Below are positions 391-9,390 of a stretch of 14,750 nucleotides of DNA, one piece after another; positions within the stretch are counted from its first letter, which is position 1; each line of letters opens with the position of its first letter. The DNA lies in assembly GCF_003334315.1 (NCBI RefSeq), contig NZ_QOWR01000077.1, one strand, 5' to 3'. Both the position numbers and the translations under genes were made by a program. The notes under the pieces were generated by a model. The model saw only the letters and a list, made by a program, of their open reading frames with translations. It made no database searches and was not told the origin of the DNA. This DNA comes from Escherichia coli (GTDB taxonomy: Bacteria > Pseudomonadota > Gammaproteobacteria > Enterobacterales > Enterobacteriaceae).

Positions 391-442
391 TTAAAGCGAT
401 TGTAAGCTAATGTATGTAATAAATGAGATAATTTACAGTAAG

Positions 443-478
443 CTAAAAATCAGCCAGGCGATAATGACCTGGCTGATA
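443..478 (-). terminator. Rho-independent terminator directly downstream of the yeaH stop
   Basis: Perfect 10-bp stem ATCAGCCAGG (449-458) / CCTGGCTGAT (468-477) with a 9-nt loop. On the minus-strand RNA it is followed by UUUU (plus-strand A-run 445-448). It starts 4 nt after the yeaH stop codon (482-484). Confidence 0.7.
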
Positions 479-481
479 GTT

Positions 482-1777
<1,296 letters not shown>

Positions 1778-1877
1778 CTACATTTGCCAACTGTATGCTA
1801 CGCCTGTGTTGCCGCTTCTCAGGCCCACGGTTCGCTGTCGTTGTAGGCCCAGTAACATGTGTACCGGGCCAGGGTTG

Positions 1878-3812
1878 TTAAGACGATTTACGTACGCGCA
1901 AATACCATTCGCACAGTAAACGCACCTGTTTACGGGTGTAGCCTTTTTCCATCATACGGTCGACAAAGTCGTCGTGTTTCTTCTGCTCGTCGGTTGACGT
2001 TTTGGCGTTAAACGAGATAACCGGCAACAGCTCCTCGGTATTGGAGAACATTTTCTTCTCGATGACCGTGCGCAGTTTTTCATAGCTGGTCCAGTTCGGA
2101 TTGCGTCCGCTGTTATTCGCTCTGGCGCGCAGTACGAAGTTAACAATCTCGTTGCGGAAATCTTTTGGATTACTGATCCCCGCCGGTTTCTCGATTTTCT
2201 CCAGCTCGGCGTTAAGAGACTCGCGGTCAAACAGCTGCCCGGTATCCGGATCGCGATACTCCTGATCCTGAATCCAGAAATCCGCGTAGGTAACATAACG
2301 GTCGAAAATGTTTTGCCCATATTCGGAATAGGATTCAAGGTAGGCCGTCTGGATCTCTTTGCCGATAAACTCGGCATATTTCGGGATCAGATAACCTTTC
2401 AGGAACTCCAGATAGCGTTCTGCCTGCTCTTGTGGGAACTGCTCGCGCTCAATCTGCTGTTCCAGGACGTAGAACAGATGGACCGGGTTTGCTGCCACTT
2501 CTACATGAGCGAAGTTGAACACGCGGGAGAGGATCTTAAACGCAAAACGCGTCGACAGACCGTTCATCCCTTCATCGACACCGGCGTAGTCACGATATTC
2601 CTGATACGACTTGGCTTTGGGATCGGTGTCTTTCAGACTTTCGCCATCATAAACCCGCATCTTTGAATAAATGCTGGAGTTTTCTGGCTCTTTCAGGCGC
2701 GAAAGAATGGAAAAACGTGACAGTGTTTCGAGCGTGCCAGGGGCGCATGGGGCGTGAGTCAATTCACTGTGATTAAGCAATTTCTCGTAGATTTTGATCT
2801 CTTCGGAAATGCGCAAGCAATACGGCACCTTCACGATGTAAACACGATCGAGGAAGGCTTCGTTGTTTTTGTTATTACGGAAAGTGACCCATTCGGACTC
2901 GTTCGAGTGTGCGAGAATAATCCCGTTGAACGGCAGGGCGGAGATACCTTCCGTCCCGTTGTAGTTACCTTCCTGAGTGGCGGTTAACAAGGGATGCAGC
3001 ACTTTAATCGGTGCTTTAAACATCTCAACGAATTCCATGATCCCCTGATTGGCGCGGCACAGCGCACCGGAATAGCCGTAGGCGTCCGGGTCATTCTGCG
3101 CGTAGTGTTCGAGTTTACGAATATCGACTTTCCCAACCAGCGCGGAGATGTCCTGGTTGTTCTCATCGCCGGGTTCCGTTTTGGCGATAGCAATTTGTTG
3201 CAGAATTGACGGCCAGACCTTCACTACCCGGAACTTAGTGATATCGCCACCAAATTCATGCAGGCGTTTTGCCGCCCACGGCGACATGATGGTGCCGAGA
3301 TAACGGCGAGGAATGCCATACTCTTTTTCCAGAATCTGCGCATCTTCCTGCGGATTGAAAAGACAGAACGGATGATCGTTGACCGGGCTACGCTCACCGT
3401 TCGCGCTCAATACATAAATCGGTACGAGCTGCATTAATGATTTCAGTCGCTCAGCAAGCGATGATTTACCCCCACCCACAGGCCCCAGCAGATACAGGAT
3501 TTGTTTCTTCTCTTCCAGCCCCTGAGCCGCGTGTTTCAGATAAGAGACAATCTGTTCAATCGCGTCTTCCATGCCGTAAAACTCTTCAAACGCCGGATAA
3601 CGTGCAATGACCCGGTTAGAAAAGAGTCGAGAAAGTCTGGGTTCCTGGGCTGTATCGACCATGACAGGCTCACCGATAGCCATCAATAGCCGCTCAGCCG
3701 CGTTGGCATAAGCACTGCGATCTTGCCGACAAGTGGTAAGAAACTCCTGCAGTGTGAACTCTTCGTCCTTGGCAGCTTCATATCGCTGGCGATAGTGATC
3801 GAATATATTCAT
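1878..3812 (-). CDS. yeaG: YeaG, PrkA-family serine protein kinase with an AAA-type ATPase fold
   Basis: 644-aa ORF beginning MNIFDHYRQRYEAAKDEEFTLQEFL, with a Walker A motif GPVGGGKSS. Length and sequence match my recollection of E. coli YeaG. An AAGGA SD sits ~8 nt upstream of the ATG. Confidence 0.95.
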   Translation of the reverse strand: MNIFDHYRQRYEAAKDEEFTLQEFLTTCRQDRSAYANAAERLLMAIGEPVMVDTAQEPRLSRLFSNRVIARYPAFEEFYGMEDAIEQIVSYLKHAAQGLEEKKQILYLLGPVGGGKSSLAERLKSLMQLVPIYVLSANGERSPVNDHPFCLFNPQEDAQILEKEYGIPRRYLGTIMSPWAAKRLHEFGGDITKFRVVKVWPSILQQIAIAKTEPGDENNQDISALVGKVDIRKLEHYAQNDPDAYGYSGALCRANQGIMEFVEMFKAPIKVLHPLLTATQEGNYNGTEGISALPFNGIILAHSNESEWVTFRNNKNNEAFLDRVYIVKVPYCLRISEEIKIYEKLLNHSELTHAPCAPGTLETLSRFSILSRLKEPENSSIYSKMRVYDGESLKDTDPKAKSYQEYRDYAGVDEGMNGLSTRFAFKILSRVFNFAHVEVAANPVHLFYVLEQQIEREQFPQEQAERYLEFLKGYLIPKYAEFIGKEIQTAYLESYSEYGQNIFDRYVTYADFWIQDQEYRDPDTGQLFDRESLNAELEKIEKPAGISNPKDFRNEIVNFVLRARANNSGRNPNWTSYEKLRTVIEKKMFSNTEELLPVISFNAKTSTDEQKKHDDFVDRMMEKGYTRKQVRLLCEWYLRVRKSS

Positions 3813-3915
3813 GGTATGCCGTCCTTTCGTTTTTTAGCACAGGTTAAGAGCCGTTCATATGAATAGTAGAGGCTCCCGGAAGAGGTAAACTGAACGACGT
3901 CTCTTGCTAAAACAC

Positions 3916-3931
3916 AGCAACTCTCATGCCA
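3916..3931 (-). promoter_or_regulatory. Candidate sigma54 (RpoN) -24/-12 promoter for yeaG-yeaH
   Basis: Minus strand reads 5'-TGGCATGAGAGTTGCT-3' (reverse complement of 3916-3931), matching the TGGCAC-N5-TTGCW consensus with the GG and GC dinucleotides correctly spaced. The predicted start is near plus-coordinate 3905, about 90 nt upstream of the yeaG ATG. Confidence 0.55.
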
Positions 3932-4247
3932 TTTTATCGACGATGAGAACAACGTGCCCGGTGATACACCTTCAAAATTAAGCGTAGATGGCAAATGGAA
4001 AACTTGCCTGCACGGCTTTCTTAATTTCAATGGCATATCAACAACTCATCCATAAATTTTGCATAATTAATGTAAAGACCAGGCTCGCCAGTAACGCTAA
4101 ATTCATTTGGCTGTAAGCGCGGTGTCATCCGCGTCAGGAAAATTAAACAGTTACTTTAAAAAATGAAAACGTAAAAAGGTTGGGTTTCGATGTATTGACG
4201 GGTAAACTTTGTCGCCCGCTAAACATTTGTTTAAGGAATGATTAATT

Positions 4248-4994
4248 GTGACCAAACTCAAACTTCTGGCACTTGGAGTGCTTATCGCAACGTCTGCAGG
4301 CGTAGCGCACGCTGAAGGTAAATTTTCCCTGGGCGCAGGCGTAGGTGTCGTTGAACACCCATATAAAGATTACGATACCGATGTTTACCCAGTACCGGTA
4401 ATCAACTATGAAGGCGATAACTTCTGGTTCCGTGGCTTAGGTGGTGGTTACTACCTGTGGAATGACGCAACGGATAAACTTTCAATTACCGCTTACTGGT
4501 CGCCGCTTTACTTCAAAGCGAAAGACAGTGGCGATCACCAAATGCGTCACCTGGATGACCGTAAGAGCACCATGATGGCTGGTCTGTCTTATGCTCACTT
4601 TACCCAGTACGGTTACCTGCGTACCACCCTGGCTGGCGATACCCTGGATAACAGCAACGGCATCGTCTGGGATATGGCCTGGTTGTATCGTTACACCAAC
4701 GGTGGCCTGACCGTGACTCCGGGTATTGGTGTGCAGTGGAACAGCGAAAACCAGAACGAATACTATTATGGCGTATCGCGCAAAGAGTCCGCTCGCAGCG
4801 GTCTGCGTGGCTATAACCCGAACGACAGCTGGAGCCCTTACCTGGAGCTGAGCGCCAGCTACAACTTCCTCGGCGACTGGAGTGTTTACGGTACCGCACG
4901 CTACACCCGTCTGTCTGATGAAGTTACTGACAGCCCGATGGTGGATAAATCCTGGACTGGCCTGATTTCTACCGGGATCACCTACAAATTCTGA
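4248..4994 (+). CDS. mipA: MipA, MltA-interacting outer-membrane scaffold protein (OmpV/MipA family)
   Basis: 248-aa ORF starting at GTG 4248 (MTKLKLLALGVLIATSAGVAHA-EGK, a typical signal peptide). Length and sequence match MipA as I recall it. AAGGA SD at 4234-4238. Confidence 0.93.
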   Translation: MTKLKLLALGVLIATSAGVAHAEGKFSLGAGVGVVEHPYKDYDTDVYPVPVINYEGDNFWFRGLGGGYYLWNDATDKLSITAYWSPLYFKAKDSGDHQMRHLDDRKSTMMAGLSYAHFTQYGYLRTTLAGDTLDNSNGIVWDMAWLYRYTNGGLTVTPGIGVQWNSENQNEYYYGVSRKESARSGLRGYNPNDSWSPYLELSASYNFLGDWSVYGTARYTRLSDEVTDSPMVDKSWTGLISTGITYKF

Positions 4995-5023
4995 TAATGC
5001 ATCTTTCCAGGGCATTTTGTGCA

Positions 5024-5051
5024 TAAAAACAGGGCGTCACGCCCTGTTTTG
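5024..5051 (+). terminator. Rho-independent terminator downstream of mipA
   Basis: Stem CAGGGCG (5030-5036) / CGCCCTG (5040-5046) with loop TCA, followed by TTTT (5047-5050). An A-run precedes the stem, so it looks bidirectional. Confidence 0.7.
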
Positions 5052-5083
5052 CATTACGGTGGTGCAATACCTGGGAGGAAACA

Positions 5084-5938
5084 ATGCAACAAAAAATGAT
5101 TCAATTTAGTGGCGATGTCTCACTGCCAGCCATAGGGCAGGGAACATGGTATATGGGCGAAGATGCCAGTAAGTGTAAAACAGAAGTTGCTGCACTACGC
5201 GCGGGCATTGAGCTCGGTTTAACCCTCATTGATACCGCCGAAATGTATGCCGATGGTGGTGCCGAAAAGGTGGTTGGGGAAGCATTAACCGGTCTGCGTG
5301 ATAACGTCTTTCTCGTCTCTAAAGTCTATCCGTGGAATGCTGGCGGGCAAAAAGCGATAAATGCATGCGAAGCCAGTTTACGCCGTCTCAATACTGATTA
5401 TCTCGATCTCTACTTATTACACTGGTCTGGCAGTTTCGCTTTTGAAGAGACTGTCGCAGCGATGGAAAAATTGATCGCCCAGGGAAAAATCCGCCGCTGG
5501 GGCGTTTCGAACCTTGATTATGCTGATATGCAGGAACTCTGGCAGCTGCCGGGGGGAAATCAGTGTGCCACTAATCAGGTGCTTTACCATCTCGGTTCAC
5601 GAGGGATTGAGTACGATCTACTCCCCTGGTGCCAGCAACAGCAGATGCCGGTGATGGCTTACAGTCCGTTAGCCCAGGCCGGGCGGTTGCGCAATGGACT
5701 GTTAAAAAACGCGGTAGTCAACGAAATTGCACATGCTCACAATATCAGCGCGGCGCAAGTATTGTTGGCGTGGGTAATCAGCCATCAGGGTGTGATGGCG
5801 ATTCCAAAAGCGGCCACGATTGCCCATGTCCAACAGAATGCGGCTGTGCTTGAGGTCGAACTTTCGTCAGCGGAATTAGCCATGCTGGACAAAGCGTATC
5901 CGGCACCAAAAGGAAAAACTGCGCTGGATATGGTGTGA
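5084..5938 (+). CDS. yeaE: YeaE, aldo-keto reductase (NADPH-dependent methylglyoxal reductase family)
   Basis: 284-aa ORF, the length I recall for YeaE. Strong SD GGGAGGA 6-12 nt upstream of the ATG. Confidence 0.93.
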   Translation: MQQKMIQFSGDVSLPAIGQGTWYMGEDASKCKTEVAALRAGIELGLTLIDTAEMYADGGAEKVVGEALTGLRDNVFLVSKVYPWNAGGQKAINACEASLRRLNTDYLDLYLLHWSGSFAFEETVAAMEKLIAQGKIRRWGVSNLDYADMQELWQLPGGNQCATNQVLYHLGSRGIEYDLLPWCQQQQMPVMAYSPLAQAGRLRNGLLKNAVVNEIAHAHNISAAQVLLAWVISHQGVMAIPKAATIAHVQQNAAVLEVELSSAELAMLDKAYPAPKGKTALDMV

Positions 5939-5947
5939 TGTTGATAC

Positions 5948-5972
5948 GTGCCGGATGCATCGCACCCGGCAC
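5948..5972. terminator. Hairpin in the convergent yeaE / yeaD 3' intergenic region (weak terminator candidate)
   Basis: GTGCCGG (5948-5954) pairs with CCGGCAC (5966-5972) around an 11-nt loop. There is no clear U-tract on either strand, so this is a structural call only. Confidence 0.3.
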
Positions 5973-5988
5973 ACAACATTGACGCAAA

Positions 5989-6873
5989 TTAACGTTTGGC
6001 AACGCGAATGGATTGCGCCAGATGTGCAGGTTTTTCTTTGGTCACTTTTTGCATTTCTGAGGCGTAAGCTGTTTCTACACAAACAAAGGTCTTGTAGCCA
6101 TCGTCCGGCATGTCGCCCATGCTAACTGAAAGCGCCGGTCCCGGGTTCCAGCCTACAACGTTCAGATGATGCTGGTGGCCTACGGCGATAATACGATTCA
6201 GCGCTTCATCATTAATCACGCTGCAATCTTGCGGATTCAGATACACGCGATCGGTACGGTCAGGGAAGGTCTGAATACCGTCGGTCAGTACATCTTCTTT
6301 CGCGTCATTTACTTTATCAATGAAGCGATCGCCCAGCCCACTGACGCTTACCTTAGCGATATCACCCACGTTAAAGTAGGTATGCAGGGCAGAGGTGGTT
6401 TCAAATTCGCCGTGTGCTTCAAGATCGATTTCACAGGTTTTACCCACGCGGAAATGCGCTAACAGAGTAAAGTCGTGCGGCCAGAATTTTTTCGTCTCTT
6501 CGCTTTGTGTCAATTCAAAAGTCAGCGCTACGCCATTAGCATCTTCACGATGTGATTTCAGCGTCCACGGCAGGTTGCGGGCAAAACCGTGCGCAGGCAG
6601 GCCTTGTTGTGCCGCCGGACCAAACCACGGCCAGCAAACCGGTACGCCACCGCGAATAGCGATGCCATTTTTGAACGGTGTGTTGTTGCTCAACCACAGA
6701 ACTTCTTCTTCACCCGCAGGTTTCCACGAGAGAAGGTGTGCGCCCTGTAATGCAAAAGAGGCTTTTACCTGGGGATGATCGACCACAATGAGGTCCAGTT
6801 CATCCAGTTTACGACGGGAGAGGACAGGGGAGATTTGTTCGATGACCGGAAGGGCAAAAATTTTCTTAATCAT
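5989..6873 (-). CDS. yeaD: YeaD, putative D-hexose-6-phosphate mutarotase (glucose-6-phosphate 1-epimerase family)
   Basis: ORF track gives 301 aa from ATG 6894. I place the start at the internal ATG 6873 (MIKKIFALPV..., 294 aa), which matches YeaD as I recall it and has an AAAGGA SD 7 nt upstream. Confidence 0.88.
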   Translation of the reverse strand: MIKKIFALPVIEQISPVLSRRKLDELDLIVVDHPQVKASFALQGAHLLSWKPAGEEEVLWLSNNTPFKNGIAIRGGVPVCWPWFGPAAQQGLPAHGFARNLPWTLKSHREDANGVALTFELTQSEETKKFWPHDFTLLAHFRVGKTCEIDLEAHGEFETTSALHTYFNVGDIAKVSVSGLGDRFIDKVNDAKEDVLTDGIQTFPDRTDRVYLNPQDCSVINDEALNRIIAVGHQHHLNVVGWNPGPALSVSMGDMPDDGYKTFVCVETAYASEMQKVTKEKPAHLAQSIRVAKR

Positions 6874-6904
6874 GACGCAGTCCTTTAACTTCATTTTATC
6901 AGGT

Positions 6905-6935
6905 AAAAAAAAGAGCGACCGAAGTCGCTCTTTTT
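6905..6935 (-). terminator. Rho-independent terminator of gapA, looks bidirectional
   Basis: Minus-strand RNA reads AAAAAGAGCGAC-UUCG-GUCGCUCUUUUUUUU: an 8-bp GC-rich stem with a UUCG tetraloop and a long U-tract, 22 nt after the gapA stop. The plus strand carries the mirror A-run/T-run. Confidence 0.8.
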
Positions 6936-6956
6936 AGATCACAGTGTCATCTCAAC

Positions 6957-7964
<1,008 letters not shown>

Positions 7965-8159
7965 CTATTTGTTAGTGAATAAAAGGTTGCCTGTAAAATT
8001 ACAAAAACCTTACGCAGCGTCAAGCGGAATCGTGTCAATCATTGCGACAAATCAATCCTGTGCCTAAGCATTACGCGACTGACTCGCCTCACTCTTCCTT
8101 TGGGCTTGAAACCACATGGGGTCGGCGCCCCGAATTTTAAAGGGCAATTACGATAAAAA

Positions 8160-8175
8160 TGTGATTTTCATCACG
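8160..8175. promoter_or_regulatory. CRP-like binding site in the gapA / msrB divergent intergenic region
   Basis: TGTGA-TTTTCA-TCACG at 8160-8175 matches the CRP core consensus TGTGA-N6-TCACA at 9 of 10 positions. It lies ~215 bp upstream of the gapA ATG and ~120 bp upstream of the msrB ATG. Confidence 0.4.
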
Positions 8176-8242
8176 ATTTAGGTGCAGCCATTTCGTCGAG
8201 ATCAAGTTTAGGACAAAATTTTGCCAGTTGGTGTTAATGTTT

Positions 8243-8251
8243 TGTTAGAAT
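8243..8251 (+). promoter_or_regulatory. Candidate extended -10 promoter element for msrB
   Basis: TGTTAGAAT at 8243-8251 (TGn + TAGAAT, 5 of 6 to TATAAT), ~43 nt upstream of the msrB ATG. A TTGCCA -35-like hexamer at 8221-8226 is 19 bp away, which is a suboptimal spacer. Confidence 0.35.
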
Positions 8252-8293
8252 CAGTCACGTAATGTGAGCACGATTAAAGTGAGATGTGAGCAA

Positions 8294-8707
8294 ATGGCTA
8301 ATAAACCTTCGGCAGAAGAACTGAAAAAAAATTTGTCCGAGATGCAGTTTTACGTGACGCAGAATCATGGGACAGAACCGCCATTTACGGGTCGTTTACT
8401 GCATAACAAGCGTGACGGCGTATATCACTGTTTGATCTGCGATGCCCCGCTGTTTCATTCCGAAACCAAGTATGATTCCGGCTGTGGCTGGCCCAGTTTC
8501 TACGAACCGGTGAGTGAAGAATCCATTCGTTATATCAAAGACTTGTCACATGGAATGCAGCGCATAGAAATTCGTTGCGGTAACTGTGATGCCCATCTGG
8601 GGCATGTCTTCCCTGACGGGCCGCAGCCAACGGGCGAACGTTATTGTGTTAACTCTGCCTCTTTACGCTTTACCGATGGCGAAAACGGCGAAGAAATCAA
8701 CGGTTGA
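8294..8707 (+). CDS. msrB: Peptide methionine-(R)-sulfoxide reductase MsrB
   Basis: ORF track gives 147 aa from 8264. I place the start at ATG 8294 ([33 protein letters not shown]..., 137 aa). It carries the two CxxC zinc motifs (CLIC, CGNC) and the catalytic Cys context RYCVNSASL. Confidence 0.95.
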
Positions 8708-8748
8708 AAAAACGATTCAGCAACTTATTCCACAGGAGCGGAAAAATT

Positions 8749-9021
8749 ATGAATCTTGATGACATTATCAACAGCATGACGCCTGAGGTATACCAGCGTT
8801 TGTCGACCGCCGTTGAACTGGGGAAATGGCCCGATGGCGTTGCGTTGACCGAGGAACAAAAAGAGAACTGCCTGCAACTGGTGATGCTGTGGCAAGCCCG
8901 CCATAATACCGAAGCACAGCATATGACAATTGACACAAATGGTCAGATGGTCATGAAGAGCAAACAGCAGTTAAAAGAAGATTTTGGTATCTCAGCAAAG
9001 CCTATTGCCATGTTTAAGTAA
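8749..9021 (+). CDS. yeaC: YeaC, DUF1315 family small protein
   Basis: ORF track gives 105 aa from 8704. I place the start at ATG 8749 (MNLDDIINSMTPEVYQRL..., 90 aa) with SD CAGGAG at 8733-8738. It lies 41 bp downstream of msrB on the same strand. Confidence 0.9.
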   Translation: MNLDDIINSMTPEVYQRLSTAVELGKWPDGVALTEEQKENCLQLVMLWQARHNTEAQHMTIDTNGQMVMKSKQQLKEDFGISAKPIAMFK

Positions 9022-9027
9022 GTGGTT

Positions 9028-9060
9028 TATCCCCTTTTTGCCGCGGTTATAAAGGGGATA
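9028..9060. other. Perfect 10-bp hairpin directly after the yeaC stop, with no U-tract
   Basis: TATCCCCTTT (9028-9037) pairs with AAAGGGGATA (9051-9060) around a 13-nt loop that contains the palindrome CCGCGG. Neither strand has a following T-run. Confidence 0.45.
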
Positions 9061-9255
9061 GCCAACAATGACCCCACGACTCATCTCAATTATCTCGCCA
9101 TGACCTGGCTAAGTCCCAGTCCGATCTCTTGCCGTCGCGTTCACGCCTGAATGACTTCTCCTGAACTTAAGTCTCAGACCTATTTGGCCGGTAATCCCTC
9201 TCGAATTTGCTCTTTTTGCGTTCCGCCTTCCACCAACCTGTAACAGACCCAGCCA

Positions 9256-9315
9256 TTTTCTGCGTAATTGTGATCTAAGTTGTAAAACGCAGATCATTAT
9301 CTGTGTTTTGCAGAT
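9256..9315. promoter_or_regulatory. Cluster of overlapping dyad symmetries (TCTGYR / YRCAGA half-sites) upstream of ydjL; candidate operator or activator site
   Basis: Half-sites TCTGCG (9260-9265, plus), CGCAGA (9288-9293), TCTGTG (9301-9306) and TGCAGA (9309-9314). They include the 26-bp near-palindrome AAAACGCAGAT-CATT-ATCTGTGTTTT (9284-9309) with 10 of 11 arm matches. The cluster sits just upstream of a TTGACC hexamer at 9322-9327. Confidence 0.3.
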
Positions 9316-9321
9316 TTAATG

Positions 9322-9350
9322 TTGACCTCAAAAATCATGTGGGTAAGTAT
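9322..9350 (+). promoter_or_regulatory. Candidate sigma70 promoter for the ydjL operon (good -35, weak -10)
   Basis: TTGACC at 9322-9327, a 17-bp spacer, then AAGTAT at 9345-9350 (3 of 6 to TATAAT). The ydjL ATG is at 9391 with SD AGAGGA at 9377-9382. The weak -10 would fit an activator-dependent promoter. Confidence 0.25.
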
Positions 9351-9390
9351 GATGGCCATCTAAGCAAAACAAAACACAGAGGATGACGCA

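Follow-up and report, generated by a model that had tools for sequence, protein, structure and literature searches.

The GTG initiation codon of mipA in Escherichia coli and its conservation in related Enterobacteriaceae

Introduction

The mipA gene of Escherichia coli is read from a GTG codon, and an ATG lies a short distance ahead of it. The locus thus raises the question of which codon initiates MipA translation and whether the start is correctly placed in the current annotation. About one in seven genes of E. coli reportedly starts with GTG. The locus was analysed within a stretch of 14,750 nucleotides of E. coli DNA, hereafter called the window, by considering the reading frame, the pairing with the 16S rRNA, the predicted signal peptide, the curated annotations, and the orthologues in other genera.

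Reading frame and start codon of mipA

The ORF reading of the window revealed a frame of 248 codons, in which the GTG at 4248–4250 is the first ATG, GTG or TTG. The 248-amino-acid product has the N-terminus MTKLKLLALGVLIATSAGVAHAEGK, and the sequence around the start is tttgtttAAGGAATGATTAATTGTGACCAAACTC. The features of the locus are as follows.

4248..4994, plus strand: mipA coding sequence, 248 codons plus TGA, encoding the MltA-interacting / scaffolding outer-membrane protein
4248..4250, plus strand: GTG initiation codon of mipA, the first start in the ORF, annotated in RefSeq and invariant in 8 genera
4239..4241, plus strand: TGA stop in the mipA frame, 9 nt ahead of the GTG, bounding that frame on its 5' side
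4238..4240, plus strand: out-of-frame ATG in the spacer between the Shine-Dalgarno (SD) element and the start, opening a 25-codon ORF that overlaps the mipA start
4232..4237, plus strand: SD element UAAGGA, 10 nt before the GTG, -6.1 kcal/mol against the anti-SD
4248..4313, plus strand: predicted 22-codon Sec signal peptide MTKLKLLALGVLIATSAGVAHA, with an n-region of charge +2, a hydrophobic core and A-x-A before E23

When the mipA frame was read from further upstream, it gave ...F K E * L I V T K L K, with just the codons TTA and ATT between the TGA and the GTG. Since the in-frame TGA is followed only by these two codons, there is no canonical mipA start upstream of GTG 4248 in E. coli. The original prediction had placed the mipA start at GTG 4248 as the sole start giving the N-terminus MTKLKLLALG, and the ORF boundary, the upstream TGA and the annotation described below all agree with it. 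It had also regarded the nearby ATG 4238 as out of frame, which could be confirmed by translation: this ATG, 10 nt upstream of the GTG and in another frame, opens a separate ORF of 25 codons with the product MINCDQTQTSGTWSAYRNVCRRSAR*.

Shine-Dalgarno element and initiation of translation

SD pairing was scored for every ATG, GTG and TTG in 4205–4300 as the best duplex between the region -20 to -3 of the codon and the 16S 3' end ACCUCCUUA. GTG 4248 received its -6.1 kcal/mol via UAAGGA, and the complementarity falls within the interval 5–13 nt upstream of the codon. Among the remaining candidate starts, those that open at least 4 codons ranged from -3.8 to +1.5 kcal/mol. TTG 4246 was the only other site at -6.1 kcal/mol, and a stop codon directly follows it. 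An SD of AAGGA at a distance of 9 nt had originally been proposed. The motif AAGGA is indeed present, but it occupies 4233–4237, one base to the left of the proposed 4234, and its actual spacing to the GTG is 10 nt (4238–4247); a spacing of 9 nt fits only the motif AGGAA at 4234–4238.

On this basis, the 30S subunit would pair with UAAGGA at 4232–4237, which would place GUG 4248 in the P site. There the codon would be read as Met by the initiator fMet-tRNA, as expected from general knowledge of decoding. The resulting precursor of 248 residues would be exported by the Sec pathway and lose its 22-residue signal peptide, and the remaining MipA/OmpV-family protein of 226 residues would then insert as a barrel into the outer membrane. 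A GUG start has a lower initiation efficiency than AUG, and the mipA GUG is presumably less efficient at initiation than an AUG would be. Folding of the leader (4176–4290, with an arbitrary 5' end) gave -23.4 kcal/mol and a z-score of 0.07 against shuffled sequences, which indicates no structure beyond chance, and no Rfam match was obtained at gathering thresholds in the whole window.

MipA protein and signal peptide

The product matched the Pfam family MipA (PF06629) with E = 1.7e-54 over residues 28–248, covering model positions 1–221 of 221, and because of this match the mipA ORF is not a chance ORF. The n-region MTKLK carries its charge of +2 with two lysines among the first five residues. 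Residues 6–19 have a mean Kyte-Doolittle value of 2.23, and alanines occupy positions -3 and -1, so that AHA precedes E23. A sequence-feature check revealed that this signal-peptide pattern is kept in the homologues. Judged from the pattern, cleavage is predicted after A22, and E23 would be the start of the mature protein, whose predicted N-terminus is EGKFSLG. Binding to MltA and PBP1B, the source of the gene name, is assumed from identity with the K-12 protein.

The only other in-frame ATG, GTG or TTG near the 5' end of the ORF is GTG 4278 (codon 11), and translation from it would yield a product of 238 residues. This start appears exceedingly improbable. The codon is without an SD (-1.5 kcal/mol in the anti-SD scan), and the signal peptide of its product, MLIATSAGVAHA, would be left with half of the hydrophobic core and without the charged n-region. 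The ten codons that precede it are conserved as protein, as MTKLKLLALG and variants. A non-start codon stands in its place in Kluyvera (GTC), Leclercia (ATT) and Kosakonia (GTA), and no annotation uses it. GTG 4248 can be considered, with near certainty, the ordinary start of the mipA (b1782) translation initiation region, including the SD pairing and the signal peptide.

Curated annotation and variation within E. coli

The start was compared with the curated annotation of NC_000913.3 and of seven other RefSeq E. coli records, comprising another MG1655 record, O157:H7 and five other strains; mipA starts at GTG 4248 in all of them. In NC_000913.3 the gene (b1782, NP_416296.1, 'MltA-interacting protein') is annotated at complement(1865726..1866472). 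Its CDS starts 29 nt into a match beginning at position 4219 of the window, so that the annotated gene corresponds to 4248..4994, and the first 30 nt of the CDS match the window. The mipA gene of E. coli K-12 MG1655, formerly yeaF, has the same CDS coordinates, the same GTG, a product of 248 aa, and the neighbours yeaG and yeaE, and no difference could be found at the locus. The start had been presented as a minor annotation point, which is a fair description given that GTG 4248 already stands in the current annotation.

The mipA region at 4050–5060 (1011 nt) was found in all 5426 complete E. coli genomes (5426/5426), many at 100% identity, and it is 100% identical to an MG1655 record. A 60-nt query covering 4219–4278 was 100% identical in 5416/5426 of these genomes, and six genomes taken across the identity range of 98.2–100% were identical from -30 to +52 around the mipA start. 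E. coli WGI31CT, one of the 10 deviating genomes among the 5426, carries G4276T, which changes Gly10 to Val in the signal peptide. This is its sole difference in the 60 nt, and its mipA is still annotated from the GTG.

An insertion was observed at this locus in E. coli U90 (NZ_CP068035.1), where an IS10-type element lies between yeaG and mipA at the equivalent of 4217/4218 of the window. The element, annotated as 'IS4-like element ISVsa5 family transposase', occupies about 1100–2500 of the retrieved locus. The terminal repeat of the element reaches to 30 nt before the mipA GTG, so that the IS takes the place of the native upstream region and mipA of U90 would depend on read-out from it.

Compared with ordinary GTG-initiated genes of E. 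coli, mipA is alike in having a canonical alternative start and an SD at normal spacing. There is no difference in kind; the retention of GTG across 8 genera is mildly notable. A full-text literature search yielded no paper in which mipA occurs alongside retapamulin or translation initiation sites. A mipA entry was likewise absent from the searched N-terminomics and riboproteogenomics supplements, and the search yielded no E. coli start-site profiling record. Standard N-terminal proteomics would detect the mature protein, from which the signal peptide is predicted to be removed, and could therefore not settle the mipA start.

Orthologues in other genera

A protein search yielded 402 relatives at E <= 1e-20. 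Among the 120 that were listed, 106 are 248 aa long and have N-termini of the MTKLK-, MNRIK- or MNKIK-type. All JGI-only homologues among these 120 listed matches (15/15) have a literal V as the first residue; since JGI writes the first residue literally, this implies a GTG start.

Seven syntenic orthologues were compared at the nucleotide level, from Salmonella, Citrobacter koseri, Kluyvera, [Enterobacter] lignolyticus, Pseudocitrobacter, Leclercia and Kosakonia. A divergent yeaG was present upstream of mipA in 7/7 of the loci, as in the window and in K-12, and GTG occupies the same alignment column as in E. coli in every one (7/7). A purine-rich element (AAGGAAT / AAAGGGA / AGGAAAG) occurs at the same place before the GTG in 8/8 genera. 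An in-frame ATG further upstream in orthologues, which the original prediction had itself named as evidence that would speak against it, was sought in these seven genera and was absent from all of them. In C. koseri, Kluyvera, Pseudocitrobacter and Leclercia (4/7), the frame upstream of the GTG was free of start codons of any kind as far as the next stop. The strict exclusion of upstream starts is limited to E. coli and these four genera; the Salmonella sequence retrieved has an in-frame TTG at -21 which is not excluded by a stop.

The in-frame ATT at 4245–4247, which lies between the TGA and the GTG, could be considered as an initiator of the rare AUU kind known from infC and pcnB, which would lengthen the product by one residue. 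ATT is found at this position in 7/8 syntenic orthologues; however, it is ACT in Kosakonia and AAC in a Scandinavium copy. AUU is generally known as a very poor initiator, a canonical GUG follows directly at a better spacing, and no annotation or paper uses the ATT as a start. Initiation here has hardly any probability.

The spacer ATG at 4238 might instead be used besides GTG 4248, either as a competing decoy or as the start of a 25-residue peptide overlapping the mipA start. An ATG in this frame, at -10 or -7, is found in 6/8 genera, and the proteins of one homologue cluster (P0095, 34 members) are called from that ATG, with the N-terminus MDCDQTQTSGTW. However, ATG 4238 directly adjoins UAAGGA, with a spacing of 0 nt, and lacks a separate SD (+1.5 kcal/mol). 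The ATG is absent in Pseudocitrobacter and Kosakonia, and the P0095 sequence continues in the MipA frame after its N-terminus, which suggests a gene call with a frameshift. The ATG frame overlaps mipA, which constrains it, and so its persistence carries no information. Use of this ATG is therefore quite unlikely, and its presence in 6/8 genera is probably incidental. The P0095 proteins, of 250 aa, point to a frameshift in the signal peptide, which may be a real pseudogenisation or an assembly error.

The invariance of GTG 4248 was assessed against the overall divergence of mipA. The seven orthologues share 70–82% nucleotide identity with E. coli mipA, and among the codons for invariant degenerate amino acids only 13/113 (12%) are identical in all 8 genera. 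Synonymous sites are thus largely saturated, and too little divergence does not by itself account for the invariant GTG, although start codons generally change slowly. It is conceivable, though rather improbable, that the GTG is kept by selection as a weak start, which would hold MipA low and let it be switched off easily by RNAs pairing over the start, after the manner of InvS in Salmonella, and to which the spacer ATG might add a decoy.

The leader contains blocks that are invariant in 8/8 genera within variable surroundings, namely TAnACTT at 4203–4209, CGC at 4217–4219 and TTG at 4227–4229. These could be promoter elements or contact sites for Hfq or sRNAs. A sigma-70 scan revealed one weak site at 4038–4067, and the conserved blocks were not flagged by it. 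Two promoter assignments were considered and rejected. TAnACTT at 4203–4209 as a -10 box, and TGTGTAAAAT in Salmonella as an extended -10, both misfit the published Salmonella transcription start at -73 (PMC12721325), as mapped on the retrieved Salmonella locus; that start lies farther upstream than the conserved blocks.

Additional copies of MipA-family genes were observed outside the yeaG neighbourhood. Some Salmonella enterica have a second MipA/OmpV copy (P0062; GCA_007276555.1, 1501–2247 of the retrieved locus). It resembles mipA in its length of 248 aa, its 74% identity and the same start position after an AAGGA-type SD; it differs in its ATG start, in lacking the yeaG neighbourhood, and in its signal peptide, MYKISTLTALLL. 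Scandinavium manionii also has an additional copy outside this neighbourhood, at 1501–2250 of the retrieved locus, with a GTG start.

Regulation at the GUG start in Salmonella

A 'GUG start codon' has been named for the mipA (ompV) gene of Salmonella Typhimurium (PMC12721325). In the same study, an sfGFP fusion covering -73..+30, from the transcription start to codon 10, and made in the GUG frame, gave high fluorescence (PMC12721325). The sRNA InvS was reported to pair with and protect the region around the GUG and to block mipA expression, and the pairing was validated by compensatory mutations in the AC directly after the GUG (PMC12721325). The fusion and the InvS footprint are experimental support for translation in the GUG frame in a close orthologue of E. 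coli mipA.

The Salmonella Typhimurium gene shares with the E. coli gene the GUG, an AAGGAAT SD at the same distance, and the first codons GUG ACC AAA CU. The spacer differs in that the ATG lies at -7 (-10 in E. coli) and the in-frame stop at -9 is lacking. The InvS site is conserved in E. coli, whereas InvS itself is Salmonella-specific and absent from other Enterobacteriaceae (PMC12721325), which rules out InvS regulation in this form for E. coli. A literature search for sRNAs that target mipA in E. coli yielded a single match, a computational motif list in which mipA is among the OmrA-complementary mRNAs.

Surroundings of mipA in the window

Positions 391–14297 of the window (13.9 kb) are 99.2% identical to MG1655. 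The two ends of the window, 1–390 and 14298–14750, consist of mutually inverted IS1 sequences, whose common terminal repeat ggtaatgactccaacttattgatag faces inward; MG1655 is without IS1 at these sites. The window therefore comes from another E. coli or Shigella-type strain. The IS1-bracketed block has the order cdgI'-yeaH-yeaG-mipA-yeaE-yeaD-gapA-msrB-yeaC-ydjLKJI-ydjH', and the IS1 copies interrupt cdgI and ydjH. Neither IS1 junction was found as one contiguous match among the complete E. coli genomes, a collection without Shigella, and the exact junction pattern had no match among the species-representative genomes. The arrangement was also not found in the plasmid collection, as searched with one 420-kb mipA-bearing record left out. 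The mipA matches in that collection were this 420-kb record and three chromosome-sized records of 4.8–4.9 Mb; the three 4.8–4.9 Mb 'plasmid' records are probably mislabelled chromosomes. Shigella-type genomes are IS1-rich, and the IS1-flanked arrangement could reflect either such a genome or a composite element of IS1.

Between mipA and yeaE, at 5026–5050, a G+C-rich inverted repeat followed by four T was observed: aaaacagggcgtcacgccctgttttgc. It was recovered as a reverse-complement self-match, but its T run is too short for the rule of the terminator scan. From its letters, it looks like a terminator-type hairpin.

Conclusions

The GTG start of mipA is real, correct and already known. The current annotation of the start is correctly placed, and no change is needed. 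The stop at -9, the sole SD and the conserved signal peptide make the gene a worked example of a non-ATG start that sequence logic alone can fix. If the GTG were indeed selected as a weak start, E. coli would have a regulator of its own at the mipA start. All Enterobacteriaceae genera examined have kept the mipA GTG, and a regulatory sRNA lands on it in Salmonella.
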